DNA of 9,716 bases from a virus. Its lineage: Duplodnaviria; Heunggongvirae; Uroviricota; Caudoviricetes. The stretch lies in IMG/VR virus record IMGVR_UViG_3300029504_000019; one strand, given 5' to 3'. Within the stretch, counting starts at the first letter, position 1, and the number at the start of each line of letters is the position of its first letter. Made by a program: the position numbers and the translations under genes. Of the stretch, positions 5,982 to 9,716 are shown piece by piece. The notes below the pieces were generated by a model, which saw nothing but the letters and a program-made list of their open reading frames with translations, had not been told where the DNA came from and made no database searches.

Positions 5982-6684
5982 CACTCCTTACTCTGGCATC
6001 AACCACATTAATATTGATCGCCACAGGCTGGGGATGTTCATTATCTTCCACCGTTTCGATCTCTTTGCGCAGCTTCTGGTTTTCCATTCTGCGCCGTTCA
6101 ATTTCCAGTTCCTGTAGCCGTTTATCTGCACATAAAGCCCCGCCAGCAGAAAACAAACGCAACAATTCACGCCGGGCGGCAGCCTTATCCTCCAGCAGGA
6201 TCTCAACGCCGAATTTTCCGAATTTTGCCCCTGCATATAATTGCCGCGCATCCCCATCAAGCAGAGTGGTATCAGCCATATAAAGCTGTCCCGTTCCCTC
6301 ACCGCAGCACTTCGGGCAGTCCGGATTGGGTATGGCGTTATCAACAAAGCCGAGGCCTCCATATTCCGGTTCGGGTTTGCCATCTCTGGAAGCCTGCGCC
6401 GCTGCCTTGTCGAATTCTGCTATATCGCGCCACTGGTAGAGATGATTCTCGCCCCAGCAATAACGGCAGTTAACACGGCGAAATTGTGCAAGCTGATTGG
6501 GGTCGGCCAGGACAATAGCCATCAACTGACTCACTAGTAAATCCAGGTCTGCGGTATAGCGTTTCTGGTACTGATTGCGGAAGTAGCTGATAGCGCGAAA
6601 AACCCTGGCATTTCTAAGCATACGACTGGCGTTGCTGTTAGCTGTCGCACCTTGCCCCTCATAACCGGCTACCGGGCAAAACAT
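5956..6684 (-). CDS. Candidate terminase small subunit / DNA-packaging protein with a Cys4 zinc-ribbon-like motif, coiled-coil segment and acidic tail
   Basis: A 242-aa ORF directly upstream of TerL, overlapping it by about 25 nt. It contains CRYCWGENH (Cys 73/76) and CPKCCGEG (Cys 123/126/127), a charged heptad-like segment (QELEIERRRMENQKLRKEIE) and an acidic C-terminus (SDEDDLSDA). The call rests on position and architecture, not on recognised homology. Confidence 0.5.
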   Translation of the reverse strand: MFCPVAGYEGQGATANSNASRMLRNARVFRAISYFRNQYQKRYTADLDLLVSQLMAIVLADPNQLAQFRRVNCRYCWGENHLYQWRDIAEFDKAAAQASRDGKPEPEYGGLGFVDNAIPNPDCPKCCGEGTGQLYMADTTLLDGDARQLYAGAKFGKFGVEILLEDKAAARRELLRLFSAGGALCADKRLQELEIERRRMENQKLRKEIETVEDNEHPQPVAININVVDARVRSDEDDLSDA

Positions 6685-6723: not shown

Positions 6724-7089
6724 TCAGGGAGACACAAAATCAGCATTGATTAGGTCCGACAGCTCCATCCGCAACAGATCTTCATCCCAGCCAGCATTCA
6801 TCGGCAGGCGATTATCTGCCAGGCGGTACGCCTTTTTCTGCTCATCCGTCAGGCCAGACAGAACAATGACCGGAACAGAATCCATTTTGAGCATTTCAGC
6901 CGCCATAACACGACCGTGACCCGCAATAATTTCGCCCTTTTCGTCAATCAGCACCGGATTAGTCCAGCCGAATTGCTTAATACTTTCTACCAGTTGTGCC
7001 ACCTGCTCAGGGCTGTGCGTCCTGGCGTTGTGCGCATACGGTGACAATTCTTGTAATGGGCGATAGACTATCTTTAATTTCTCGCTCAT
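6724..7089 (-). CDS. ParB-like nuclease domain protein (ParB N-terminal / sulfiredoxin fold), 121 aa
   Basis: The translation has the ParB N-terminal signature around GWTNPVLIDEKGEIIAGHGR (conserved GxGR arginine finger) and a start context of AAGG then ATG. Small ParB-like proteins at this position are common in Rac-like prophages (the K-12 counterpart is ynaK), but I do not assert identity. Confidence 0.75.
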   Translation of the reverse strand: MSEKLKIVYRPLQELSPYAHNARTHSPEQVAQLVESIKQFGWTNPVLIDEKGEIIAGHGRVMAAEMLKMDSVPVIVLSGLTDEQKKAYRLADNRLPMNAGWDEDLLRMELSDLINADFVSP

Positions 7090-7103
7090 ACAGCCTTGCT
7101 TTA

Positions 7104-7140
7104 TGAATAAAACGCACCCCAGCAGCCAGTGCTACTGGGG
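7104..7140 (-). terminator. Possible intrinsic terminator after trkG (minus strand)
   Basis: On the minus strand an imperfect hairpin (CCCCAG 7117-7122 pairing with CTGGGG 7135-7140, plus inner pairs 7124-7126 with 7131-7133) is followed by GTTTTATT. The stem is interrupted and the T tract short, so this is tentative. Confidence 0.4.
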
Positions 7141-7226
7141 ACGGAGGGGTTGCTGGTAAAGTTAGGTATTGGATCAATGAGTGAGTCAACATAATATTAA
7201 ACTCACAATTATAAATCAGCCATATA

Positions 7227-8684
7227 TTAGGAGCGCCAAAAAAAACCTGAAAACAATATAATAACAGGATAAATTTCAAGGCGACCAAGAATCATAGCTA
7301 TGCACATTAAACATTTTGCAATGTCATTAAGCACTCCGAATGACGATGCAGTAGCCCCAAAACCTAATCCCATATTATTAATACATGCAGCCACTGTTGC
7401 AAATGATGTAAGAAAATCATATCCCATACCATTTAACACCAGTATAAAAAACACCGTGAAGAGAGTATAAAGAAAAAAGAAACTCCATACAGACCTCATT
7501 ACACGATCTGTAACTATCTTCCCTCCTACATTTACACTCAACAACGCTCTGGGATGAGAAAGCTGATTTATCTCGTGTTTGCTTTGTTTGAAAAGTATAA
7601 GAAATCGAAGTGACTTAATTCCACCACAAGTTGAACCTATACATCCCCCAAAGAAACTTGACAACAGCAAAAACACTATCGTGTGCGTGGGCCAACTTGC
7701 ATAATCCTGCGTAGCTAAACCATTATCAGTGAGCATGGAGCTGGCAAGAAAAAACGAATGAATAAAACTTCCATGCAAGTCATACATACCTATATGCCAG
7801 ACCTGGAAAGAGGTAACAATGATCACCCCTAAGGCTATTAACAGAAAGAAACGAAGTTCAATATCTCTGATTAAAGGTTTTATCGTTTTCCTGCTAATAA
7901 CAATATACCAAAGAGTGAAGTTGAAAGCCGATAGCAGGGAAAAAGAACCAGCCACCAGCTCAACCAAATAGTTATTAAAATATCCGATACTCTCGCTATG
8001 AGTTGAGAAACCACCAAGCGAAACTGTGGAAATCCCGTGACAAATAGCATCAAACAAAGGCATTCCTGCAAGTCTATAACAGACAATACAAGCAATACCT
8101 AATAAAGAATAAGTTATCCACAGTGTCCGTGACGTATCGGCCAGGCGGGGAGTGAGTTTGTCATCCTTAAATGGCCCCGGCATTTCTGACTGATAAAGCT
8201 TTGCACCACCAATACCCAATAATGGCAATACAGCAACCGCCAGAACAATAACTCCTAAACCACCTATAAAATTTAACTGTGACCGATAGTACAAATATGC
8301 CCGAGGTAATGAACTAACATCATCAATTACAGTTGCTCCTGTTGTTGTTATTCCAGAAACCCCTTCAAACAGAGCATCAATGAACGTTAAATTAAGTTCT
8401 GAGTCAATCCATAAAGGGAATGCACTAATAACAGAAAACAAAATCCAAAACATTACAATTATAATAAACCCATCACGGGTACGTAATTGAATGCCAGATT
8501 TCTTAGTTGTATACCACGCTCCGCCACCAATGCAAAAAAATATAACGAAAGTTATAAAGAAAACGAACAGGCTTTTTTCTTTATAAAACAATGCTACAAC
8601 CATTGGTGGCAACATTGAAAGACTATAGAGCCAAACCAGGAACCCACACATATGAGTAACAACTCTTACATGAGATGTATTCAT
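7227..8684 (-). CDS. trkG: TrkG/TrkH-family potassium uptake transporter (about 485 aa from the ATG at 8684)
   Basis: Polytopic membrane protein with TrkH/KtrB selectivity-filter-like glycine motifs (GVSGITTTGATV, TVSLGGFSTH, CINNMGLGFG); the sequence from MNTSHVRVVTHMCGFLVWLYSL matches my recollection of E. coli TrkG. The track start at 8702 is a TTG six codons upstream; the ATG at 8684 is preferred. The gene is visibly AT-rich relative to its neighbours. Confidence 0.9.
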   Translation of the reverse strand: MNTSHVRVVTHMCGFLVWLYSLSMLPPMVVALFYKEKSLFVFFITFVIFFCIGGGAWYTTKKSGIQLRTRDGFIIIVMFWILFSVISAFPLWIDSELNLTFIDALFEGVSGITTTGATVIDDVSSLPRAYLYYRSQLNFIGGLGVIVLAVAVLPLLGIGGAKLYQSEMPGPFKDDKLTPRLADTSRTLWITYSLLGIACIVCYRLAGMPLFDAICHGISTVSLGGFSTHSESIGYFNNYLVELVAGSFSLLSAFNFTLWYIVISRKTIKPLIRDIELRFFLLIALGVIIVTSFQVWHIGMYDLHGSFIHSFFLASSMLTDNGLATQDYASWPTHTIVFLLLSSFFGGCIGSTCGGIKSLRFLILFKQSKHEINQLSHPRALLSVNVGGKIVTDRVMRSVWSFFFLYTLFTVFFILVLNGMGYDFLTSFATVAACINNMGLGFGATASSFGVLNDIAKCLMCIAMILGRLEIYPVIILFSGFFWRS

Positions 8685-8685
8685 A

Positions 8686-8760
8686 TCTAAATATTCTTTC
8701 AATTATAACCACCTTGCTGCAATATTATGATTATACTGTATAAAATTTAACTCCTCTTAG
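8686..8760 (-). promoter_or_regulatory. AT-rich region upstream of trkG with candidate sigma70 -10 hexamers (possible autonomous promoter)
   Basis: The 119-bp gap between the Rz stop and trkG carries two perfect TATAAT hexamers on the minus strand (8707..8702 and 8735..8730), but neither has a convincing -35 element at 16-18 bp. Speculative. Confidence 0.25.
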
Positions 8761-8821
8761 ATCTTACTTCACTGTTCCTTATGAAACAATCATCAAAATG
8801 AATCATATTGTAGTTAAGATT

Positions 8822-9286
8822 TTACTTTAAACACTGCTCGGTTATGTATTGCTGAGCACCTTCAAGTTGGGCCTGCATCATTACCAGTCGTTCCCGGAGG
8901 GTGAAATAATCCCGTTCAGCGGTGTCTGCCAGTCGGGGGGAGGCTGCATTATCCACGCCGGAGGCGGTGGTGGCTTCACGCACTGACTGACAGACTGCTT
9001 TGATGTGCAACCGACGACGACCAGCGGCAACATCATCACGCAGAACATCATTTTCAGCTTTCGCATCAGCTAACTCCTTCGTGTATTTTGCATCGAGCGC
9101 AGCAACATCACGCTGACGCATCTGCATGTCAGTAATTGCCGCGTTCGCCAGCTTCAGTTCTCTGGCATTTTTGTCGCGCTGTTCTTTGTAGGCGATGGCG
9201 TTATCACGGTAATGATTAACACCCCATGACAGGCAGACGACGATGCAGATAACCAGAGCGGAGATAATCGCGGTTACTCTGTTCAT
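8822..9286 (-). CDS. Rz: Rz i-spanin (inner-membrane spanin subunit)
   Basis: Near-identical over most of its length to lambda Rz as I recall it ([21 protein letters not shown]...[44 protein letters not shown]...[45 protein letters not shown]...). N-terminal transmembrane helix then coiled coil. The ATG at 9286..9284 overlaps the endolysin stop (TGA 9285..9283) as ATGA; the track start at 9298 is a GTG four codons upstream. Confidence 0.9.
8881..9066 (-). CDS. Rz1: Rz1 o-spanin (outer-membrane lipoprotein), fully embedded in Rz in the +1 frame
   Basis: 61-aa ORF (ATG 9066..9064) with a lipobox (LVVVGC), a Pro-rich tract ([19 protein letters not shown]), and the classic embedded-gene arrangement inside Rz. 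Confidence 0.85.
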
Positions 9287-9716
9287 TGCTGACCCCACAA
9301 ACAGATTTCACGCTCAATCTCACGACGAGTCATGAGACCTTTCCATTGCTTACCGCCAGCATATGTCCAGCGACGTAGCTGATCACATGCGCCTTTGATA
9401 TCGCCCTGGTTTATTTTGCGAAGAAGCGTCGATGTTCTGAAATTGCCAGCACCCACGTTGTAAACGAATGAGTAAAGAGCGCCGCGCGTTGTTTCCGGTA
9501 TATCGACTTTGATGTACGGGTTAATTTGTCTGGCGACCGTGGCAAGGTCTTTATTCAAGAGTGTTTTGCATTCTGCTTTGGTATACGTTTTACCGAGCAT
9601 GATGTCTTTTCCTGTATGCCCGTGACATACAGTCCATACACCAACAATATCTTTGTATGGTATGTAGCTGACACCTTCCAGACCATCGTTACCACTTGGG
9701 CCAGTGATTAACACTG
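9283..9716 (-). CDS. R: Endolysin, T4-lysozyme-type (GH24) of the P21 R / SAR-endolysin kind; 5' end (SAR signal-anchor) lies outside the window
   Basis: The translation (...[36 protein letters not shown]...CLWGQQ) matches my recollection of the P21 R21 SAR endolysin, with the Glu/Asp/Thr catalytic positions (GLEG, YKDIVG, WTVCHG) present. The frame is open to the window edge, and the first track codon is an internal GTG (Val), so the gene is truncated by the window and not biologically. Confidence 0.9.

Follow-up and report, generated by a model that had tools for sequence, protein, structure and literature searches.

Phage 'morons' were reportedly described by Juhala, Hendrix and colleagues in 2000, with lambda bor, downstream of Rz, as an example. 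The LT-II heat-labile enterotoxin operons of type II ETEC are also carried in prophages (Jobling 2016, as cited in PMC5917428), and published LT-IIc loci are flanked by a phage lysozyme gene on one side and a parB-like gene on the other (PMC3252337). [quoted passage not shown] 1991, 1995, cited in PMC9898762 and PMC5811629). In K-12 this gene, located in rac, has a GC content of 38%, compared to 53% for trkH, and K+ uptake by its product depends on TrkA and on Na+ (PMC9898762). A lux reporter of the fragment upstream of trkG had promoter activity in K-12, and trkG mRNA was elevated in hns and hns stpA mutants, with ChIP-chip in agreement (PMC9898762). Genomic SELEX with the RpoD holoenzyme, an in vitro method, gave a peak at the Rac trkG gene that was classed as a 'constitutive promoter', from which its authors concluded that trkG came into Rac together with its own promoter (PMC5811629). 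The residence of trkG in Rac, its low GC content, its silencing by H-NS and its own promoter are thus all already in the literature. The present analysis adds little new biology; its practical gains are the boundaries of the passenger segment, the backbone status of a hairpin downstream of the gene and a possible revision of the start codon.

The window, the whole 9,716-nucleotide stretch of viral DNA analyzed, is 99.7% identical to the K-12 Rac prophage over positions 6836–9266, in line with the residence of trkG in Rac prophages that an earlier note on this sequence gave as established. K-12 has the same gene with the same flanks, in the same order (Rz remnant, trkG, ynaK), and the gap upstream of trkG is 100% identical. 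Because of this near-identity, the published K-12 work applies to the locus in the window. The window prophage differs from K-12 Rac in its better preserved lysis side, which has complete Rz/Rz1 genes and a lysozyme. It also keeps terL and the portal gene, and has its own set of deletions. The exact architecture of the window was found in no complete E. coli genome of the collection. We consider it likely that trkG is a moron of a decayed Rac-like lambdoid prophage, with its own sigma-70 promoter, and that the hairpin downstream of it is part of the phage backbone.

The trkG coding sequence (7227..8702, minus strand) encodes a TrkH-family K+ transporter subunit of 491 amino acids when read from a TTG at 8702, or 485 from the RefSeq-style ATG at 8684. 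The product matches the Pfam TrkH profile (PF02386; E=5e-145) at full length and above the curated cut-off in a profile search (484 bits, cut-off 27; residues 46–489 on profile positions 3–500 of 502), and it shows 100% identity with P0001, the TrkG cluster of E. coli. Going by this identity, it would be expected to share the published K+-uptake function of K-12 TrkG. The gene was described in the earlier note as AT-rich relative to the flanking phage genes, and this was borne out: trkG has a GC content of 38.1% and a GC3 of 32.3%, compared to 52.2% and 52.2% for Rz, 50.0% and 54.9% for ynaK, 51.6% and 51.4% for the terS fragment, 45.5% and 46.0% for terL, and 47.4% and 47.1% for the portal gene (overall, GC of 45–52% and GC3 of 44–55% in the surrounding phage genes). 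The rare codons AGA, AGG, ATA, CTA, CGA and GGA make up 7.8% of trkG and 2.5–5.8% of the adjoining phage genes. The trkG-specific segment (7156–8821) has a GC content of 36.6%, between flanks of 48.3% and 49.4%, and so has the deviant base composition of a moron. These results support the reading of trkG as a compositionally foreign passenger in a Rac-like prophage.

In the Enterobacterales, TrkG belongs to a clade whose chromosomal members in E. fergusonii, Citrobacter, Pectobacterium, Enterobacter, Serratia and Xenorhabdus are 61–79% identical to it. The full-length TrkH domain is common within the TrkH/TrkG clade (PF02386), while the location in a phage and the lowest GC content are specific to the E. 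coli copy, which is the only phage-borne one among the TrkG-clade genes compared and the lowest in GC of those examined (38% vs. 42–57%). It is very improbable that the low GC content results from membrane-protein constraint and that trkG is an old resident of the phage lineage rather than acquired cargo. An old resident would fit with the failure to find an exact empty site, and with the fact that all 80 trkG copies in viral contigs belong to one lineage of 99–100% identity. However, the paralogue trkH, in the same host, has 53% GC (PMC9898762), and a TrkG-clade gene of Enterobacter has 56.7% GC with a GC3 of 72%, meaning that the protein itself does not force low GC. Amino acid content also fails to account for a GC3 of 32% together with a leader of 25% GC, and the closest relatives of trkG are chromosomal, not in phages.

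The placement of trkG between Rz/Rz1 and the packaging genes, as claimed in the earlier note, is evident from the gene order of this Rac-like prophage. The Rz i-spanin gene (8822..9298, minus strand; Pfam Phage_lysis E=4e-53) has a likely ATG start at 9286 and a TAA stop at 8824..8822, and the gene for the Rz1 o-spanin lipoprotein (8881..9066, minus strand; Pfam Rz1 E=2e-19) is embedded in it. On the other side, ynaK (6724..7089, minus strand; Pfam ParB_N E=3e-7) is the N-terminal part of a ParB/Srx-like gene, the first of the packaging module; a deletion has truncated it in the window, and the intact gene in phage vB_EcoS-683R6 encodes 263 amino acids. In that intact phage Q, S, R, Rz, trkG, ParB and terS are all on one strand. 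The direction of trkG is the same as that of the phage late operon, in contrast to lambda bor, which is opposite.

Both ends of the segment were delimited by comparison with phages that lack trkG. The C-terminus of Rz is homologous to these phages up to the stop codon, directly after which all similarity ends. At the left end, homology to trkG-less relatives begins again at ~7155; a boundary at 7131, taken from F2_407, was replaced by this one after alignment of MB07081 and HBUT-L. The passenger segment is now delimited to about 7156–8821. An empty site was sought among 5,426 E. coli genomes. No genome matched an artificial Rz-terminator-ynaK junction, used as a query for Rz joined to ynaK without trkG, with at least 80% coverage at one place, and in none did this Rz lie joined to this ynaK within about 750 bp. 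The earlier description of trkG as 'inserted' fits the breaks in similarity at the Rz stop and at ~7155, and an insertion would be read from these mosaic boundaries only. The absence of a relative in which the flanking genes Rz and ynaK are directly adjacent is a difference from the morons.

The same slot, from a lysis gene to a parB-like gene, holds the LT-II operons in lambdoid or Rac-like prophages of type II ETEC (PMC3252337), so the position that carries trkG here is occupied by LT-II-type toxin genes elsewhere. In MB07081 the slot from lysis genes to ParB is occupied by enterotoxin genes, and at one trkG-less locus (L013) the enterotoxin A and B genes are followed by a homologous hairpin and ynaK. 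Apart from the cargo, the LT-II prophages differ in their lysis cassette, which has GH108 or M15 enzymes and other holins in place of the lysozyme and Rz/Rz1 found here. At the icd locus, a diverged allele of trkG (L012) was considered as a case of the leader travelling independently of Rz; this was rejected, as the 3' end of Rz is still present there, indicating that L012 has a Rac-like phage as its ancestor and so is no independent case.

Directly downstream of the gene is a trkG-specific 3' untranslated stretch (7156..7226, minus strand), partly alignable with the 3' flank of the E. fergusonii homologue. Fold prediction places an AT-rich imperfect hairpin in it at 7206..7181, which is not kept in the L012 allele, and an Rfam scan of the whole window gave no match. 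Beyond this stretch, the hairpin and T-tract reported in the earlier note were found at 7143..7106 on the minus strand, 17 nt upstream of the start codon of ynaK. The hairpin (7143..7113) has a stem of 13 pairs with one bulge, followed by G and the U-tract UUUUAUU (7112..7106), which is the sequence pattern of an intrinsic terminator. Its predicted energy is −22.5 kcal/mol (z=−3.3), and only 1 of 200 shuffled sequences folds as well. Polymorphisms in the population either strengthen pairs of the stem or lie in its bulge: 7141 T>C and another, 7134 T>C, each change a G.U pair to G-C, and position 7116 is the bulge.

That this structure is a private terminator which arrived together with trkG, as had been proposed, is quite unlikely. 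It is the first strong terminator-like structure past the trkG stop, and in the trkG-less F2_407 (L003) the 5' arm is missing, with the break in similarity falling inside the hairpin, as would be the case if it had arrived with the gene. However, equally strong hairpins with U-tracts are folded by two trkG-less loci, L013 with its enterotoxin cargo (−22.4 kcal/mol) and L014 with no annotated cargo (−25.6 kcal/mol, z=−4.2). Both are homologous to the window from ~7155 onward, with the hairpin equally far from the start of ParB, and in the alignment a double change from C-G to A-U between the window and L013 keeps a stem pair. The chromosomal trkG homologues lack this hairpin, and L012 departs from the window ca. 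50–60 nt past the stop codon, before the hairpin is reached. An own terminator that travels with the gene is thus not found here; unlike that of a moron, the terminator is common to relatives with other cargo and hence is the slot's rather than the gene's. The hairpin and U-tract are best read as a phage-backbone element at the edge of the cargo slot and as a predicted terminator.

A more speculative proposal, to which we give limited credence, is a conserved 'slot terminator' before the ParB-led module, of which the 3' arm and U-tract would be fixed and the 5' arm and stem register rebuilt at each exchange of cargo (trkG, LT-II-type toxin genes, small ORFs), serving in the lysogen as an insulator of the structural genes and also as a preferred recombination joint. 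Yersinia phage vB_YpM_39 and other distant ParB-first phages have terminator-like hairpins 130–260 nt upstream of ParB, in a different spot, and these are weak support for it. If true, such an element would help to predict the sites at which passenger genes are acquired and insulated in lambdoid prophages. The Term-seq supplementary data searched had no entries for trkG or ynaK.

The K-12 data bear on the promoter. The primers of the published lux reporter match the window exactly at 8685–8709 and 9171–9195, giving a fragment of 511 bp (8685–9195); since this includes 374 bp of Rz, the promoter is not localized to the gap. Autonomous expression of trkG, put forward in the earlier note, is backed by this reporter and by the RpoD SELEX, both of which concern an identical upstream sequence. 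The moron property of an own promoter is thus found here by way of identity to K-12 and the published reporter and SELEX data. The locus also has the properties of an H-NS silencing target, with AT-richness measured here and repression published for the identical K-12 locus (PMC9898762).

There is hardly any chance that trkG lacks its own promoter and is expressed only from late-operon transcripts that start at pR' and read through beyond Rz. Such read-through would suit a gene that shares the direction of the late genes and, in intact relatives, is flanked by Rz and the packaging genes, and no canonical −35/−10 pair stands out. The late promoter normally lies within the Q-holin-lysozyme stretch. 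K-12 Rac is without Q, holin and lysozyme upstream of trkG, which makes late read-through unlikely as the sole source of expression, yet trkG is expressed there at a level similar to trkH. In addition, the 511-bp upstream fragment drives luciferase (PMC9898762), and the RpoD holoenzyme binds at trkG in vitro (PMC5811629). Contradicted by the K-12 reporter data, transcription by read-through only is largely refuted.

The AT-rich non-coding leader or promoter region of trkG lies at 8703..8821 (minus strand; GC 25.5%) and reaches 8685 if the ATG is the start. The 119-bp gap of the earlier note is indeed AT-rich, but this length holds only when counted from the TTG, and is 137 bp from the annotated ATG. 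The gap is 100% identical in K-12, U1, ABW_S38 and phage vB_EcoS-683R6, and its sequence was found in 1,545 of the 5,426 E. coli genomes, with trkG annotated beneath the match in all 30 sampled hits. The two perfect TATAAT hexamers noted previously are present on the coding strand, at 8735..8730 (distal) and 8707..8702 (proximal). Their enrichment is mild, as 2.6–4.5% of shuffles of the gap have at least two, and extra copies occur on the same strand at 8463..8458 and 7213..7208. Compared with sigma-70 promoters, the locus has a −10 near TATAAT but neither a −35 at 16–18 bp nor a TGn: the best −35 at this spacing matches 2 of 6 positions at the distal TATAAT and 3 of 6 at the proximal one, and the TGn of an extended −10 is absent at both. 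A consensus promoter scan gave 5 sites, with 7.4 ± 2.6 expected by chance and thus no excess, and picked up neither TATAAT.

The last T of the proximal hexamer (8702..8707, minus strand) is the first T of the TTG start codon, 6 nt upstream of which is a Shine-Dalgarno-like AAGGTGG (8709..8715, minus strand). The chromosomal homologue of E. fergusonii retains the motif TATAATTGA. From this arrangement, the proximal TATAAT is probably a spacer between the AAGGTGG ribosome-binding site and the conserved TTG start rather than a −10, which would leave the distal hexamer as the only sensible −10 of the two. The distal TATAAT (8730..8735, minus strand), with a predicted start at ~8723 and a 21-nt leader to the TTG, is the most likely −10, given its placement relative to the ribosome-binding site. 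It is unchanged in L012, a 7%-diverged allele, and in 80 IMG/VR loci, although hexamer conservation carries no weight, as the trkG-carrying loci (80 viral contigs, 1,545 genomes) are too little diverged. The TTG at 8702 is probably the translation start of trkG, and E. coli TrkG as annotated, from the ATG, may lack its first six codons.

It is less probable, though a reading to be taken seriously, that trkG has its own promoter with the −10 elsewhere: at the proximal TATAAT (feeding the ATG at 8684), at the pair TTTAAA-18-TATGAT (8831..8802) or in the 3' end of Rz. The reporter fragment 8685–9195 covers all of these sites and cannot tell them apart; the TTTAAA/TATGAT pair is the only site in the gap that passes the consensus scan, and the proximal hexamer is perfect and conserved in E. 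fergusonii. Against the latter, a start 7 nt downstream of it would fall inside the TTG-initiated frame and leave ca. 11 nt, with no ribosome-binding site, ahead of the ATG. The TTTAAA/TATGAT pair is lost in L012, through an 18-bp deletion and a change of TATGAT to TAAGAT, and no coding-strand site within Rz passed the consensus scan.

With the distal hexamer as the preferred −10, the following course of events is proposed. In the lysogen, host sigma-70 RNA polymerase would transcribe trkG from the AT-rich DNA directly upstream, using the TATAAT at 8735..8730 and starting near 8723, with expression partly damped by H-NS/StpA. Translation would begin at TTG 8702 behind AAGGTGG, and transcripts would end at the hairpin and U-tract (7143..7106), a putative slot-edge terminator that would keep transcription from any cargo promoter out of the packaging and head genes. 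On induction of intact relatives, Q-modified late transcription is predicted to pass through both trkG and the terminator. The locus would then be like the morons in having an extra gene of deviant composition in a post-lysis slot, with a host-type prophage promoter and a terminator after it.

All genes in the window from 9714 down to about 2990 are encoded on the minus strand. A phage lysozyme gene, cut by the window end, comes first and is followed by Rz (8822-9298) with Rz1 embedded in it (8881-9066), trkG (7227-8702), ynaK, which is an ORF with a ParB_N domain (6724-7089), a small-terminase fragment, a large terminase gene, and a gene for a DUF4055 portal protein. The trkG product gives a full-length match to Pfam TrkH (E=5e-145) and shows 100% identity with the E. 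coli TrkG cluster. Three internal deletions set the window apart from intact Rac-like prophages (OW1E2, for example): 1,853 bp are gone between the ParB gene and terS (6657-6671, with a 15-bp overlap at the joint), 2,279 bp are gone between the capsid and minor-head-protein genes (2989-2990), and at 2783 a capsid gene fragment is joined to the lom/tail-fibre region. None of 5,426 complete E. coli genomes covers at least 80% of the window in one place. GC is 58–63% in the region 1050-2250, where the AT skew is strong (reaching -0.46) and long ORFs overlap on both strands; a Pfam search of three ORFs there gave no hit, and the region matches the Lom and tail-fibre regions of lambdoid phages at ca. 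90%.

Positions 6836-9266 are 99.7% identical to the Rac prophage of E. coli K-12 MG1655, and the gap upstream of trkG is base-for-base the same in K-12, two further strains and the induced phage vB_EcoS-683R6. The trkG leader was found in 1,545 of the 5,426 genomes (about 28%), with trkG annotated under the match in 30 of 30 sampled; all 80 matches in viral contigs were of one lineage, 99–100% identical. E. coli 2020CK-00188 has a trkG allele whose leader is ca. 7% diverged (L012, 2588-4300). This allele is near icd/iraM, adjoining an IS5 fragment outside the usual Rac context, and retains the 3' end of Rz, where an 18-bp deletion takes out the Rz stop codon.

The composition of trkG is foreign to its surroundings, as the earlier note had proposed – the gene has 38.1% GC (32.3% GC3), compared to 45–52% GC (44–55% GC3) in the genes beside it, and the segment 7156-8821 has 36.6% GC between flanks of 48.3% and 49.4%. 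A published comparison likewise gave 38% GC for trkG and 53% for trkH, and placed trkG in rac (PMC9898762). TrkG-clade genes of 61–79% identity belong to ordinary chromosomal regions of E. fergusonii, Citrobacter, Pectobacterium, Enterobacter and Xenorhabdus, and to an island in Serratia. Their GC content spans 42–57% (native-like in Enterobacter and Xenorhabdus), all above the 38% of the Rac copy, which is the only phage-borne one seen. Several of the chromosomal genes are below the GC of their flanks (Pectobacterium, 43% vs 50–52%; a Serratia island, 45%). The TrkG-clade gene seems to be frequently mobile, without phage involvement.

The trkG-specific DNA extends over about 7156-8821 (1,666 bp). 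On the side of the lysis genes, two prophages that lack trkG but have a related Rz are homologous through the final Rz codons and stop, and unrelated directly beyond. On the packaging side, three trkG-less prophages have a related ParB gene (F2_407, MB07081 and HBUT-L), and similarity to the latter two begins at ca. 7155, upstream of a hairpin. In none of the 5,426 genomes are this Rz and this ynaK joined in the absence of trkG, so the apparent insertion is read from mosaic joints and not from an empty site. The earlier reading of trkG as cargo between Rz/Rz1 and the packaging genes holds. In E. coli MB07081 (5483-6620 of its locus; identical in E21845/O/A), the same slot (lysis genes on one side, hairpin and ynaK on the other) is taken up by genes with the annotations enterotoxin A family and enterotoxin B. 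This arrangement fits the flanks of published LT-II loci; LT-IIc loci have a phage lysozyme gene on one side and a parB-like gene on the other (PMC3252337), and the slot is therefore a recurrent cargo site, bounded downstream by a predicted terminator. Annotated cargo is absent from the slot in HBUT-L.

The hairpin downstream of trkG (7143..7113, followed by UUUUAUU) is real and strong (-22.5 kcal/mol, z=-3.3), but it is not private to trkG, contrary to the earlier suggestion. Strong hairpins followed by U-tracts are conserved at the slot edge, equally far from the ParB start, in the trkG-less MB07081 (-22.4 kcal/mol) and HBUT-L (-25.6 kcal/mol, z=-4.2), and chromosomal trkG homologues lack this hairpin. 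The 3' arm and U-tract can be aligned between the window and these two relatives, and in the alignment one stem pair is doubly changed with pairing kept (C-G in the window, A-U in MB07081). Among 78 viral-contig copies there are three hairpin polymorphisms: 7141 and 7134 change G.U to G-C, and 7116 is in a bulge. The 5' arm is lost in F2_407. The putative terminator is a phage element, not one of trkG. In a lysogen, transcription would end at 7106-7112; after induction of intact relatives, which have Q, S, R, Rz, trkG, ParB and terS on one strand, Q-modified polymerase would read through.

Right past the trkG stop codon there are also a third coding-strand TATAAT (7208-7213) and an AT-rich imperfect hairpin (7181-7206, GTGAGT...ACTCAC), which aligns in part with the E. 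fergusonii 3' flank and is lost in the L012 allele. In the distant Yersinia phage vB_YpM_39 (2445-2583 of its locus), terminator-like hairpins with U-tracts lie 130–260 nt upstream of an analogously placed ParB gene.

Autonomous expression of trkG is already supported by experiment, since the literature covers the identical K-12 sequence. A cloned 'trkG promoter' gives luciferase expression, and trkG mRNA goes up in hns and hns stpA mutants (PMC9898762). The window has exact matches to the primers of this reporter at 8685-8709 and 9171-9195, and therefore the active fragment is 8685-9195; promoter activity lies within it, with partial repression by H-NS/StpA. SELEX with RpoD holoenzyme gave a peak at trkG in Rac, and its authors concluded that the promoter entered the prophage along with trkG (PMC5811629). 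Read-through from the late operon is a very unlikely source of this expression, because Q, holin and lysozyme are all absent upstream of trkG in K-12 Rac. That trkG is Rac cargo with its own promoter is known biology.

The upstream gap has 25.5% GC, as AT-rich as noted earlier, and its length is the reported 119 bp only if counted from TTG 8702 (137 bp from the annotated ATG 8684). On the coding strand it has two perfect TATAAT hexamers (8735..8730 and 8707..8702), both intact in the L012 allele; 2.6–4.5% of shuffles of the gap had at least two. More copies occur on this strand within and just past trkG, so that by themselves the hexamers count for little as evidence. Both lack a TGn extension and any -35 above 3/6, and a consensus scan gave no more promoter-like sites than expected by chance. 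The one site that passed (TTTAAA-18-TATGAT, 8831..8802) is destroyed in the L012 allele.

The proximal hexamer coincides with translation signals. The start of the closest TrkG-clade proteins (491 aa; Pectobacterium, Pantoea, Enterobacter, Rahnella, Cronobacter) lies six codons before the E. coli ATG, at whose position they have a non-Met residue, and DNA alignment places an in-frame TTG at the equivalent start in E. fergusonii, Citrobacter and Pectobacterium. In the window (8684-8715), AAGGTGG is followed by 6 nt and TTG 8702; ATG 8684 has no comparable ribosome-binding site. E. coli TrkG (485 aa) may have been annotated from the wrong start codon, with translation probably beginning at TTG 8702. 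The proximal TATAAT is exactly the AAGGTGG-TTG spacer plus the first T of TTG, and translation signals account better for its retention in E. fergusonii. Both proposed hexamers are present, but this one is probably no promoter element. The distal TATAAT (8735..8730) is the likelier -10, which would place the transcription start near 8723 and give a 21-nt leader containing the ribosome-binding site. Perfect TATAAT copies also occur within trkG at 7257 and 8460 (plus strand) and at 8458-8463 (minus strand), promoter-like sequence of the kind expected for AT-rich, H-NS-bound DNA.
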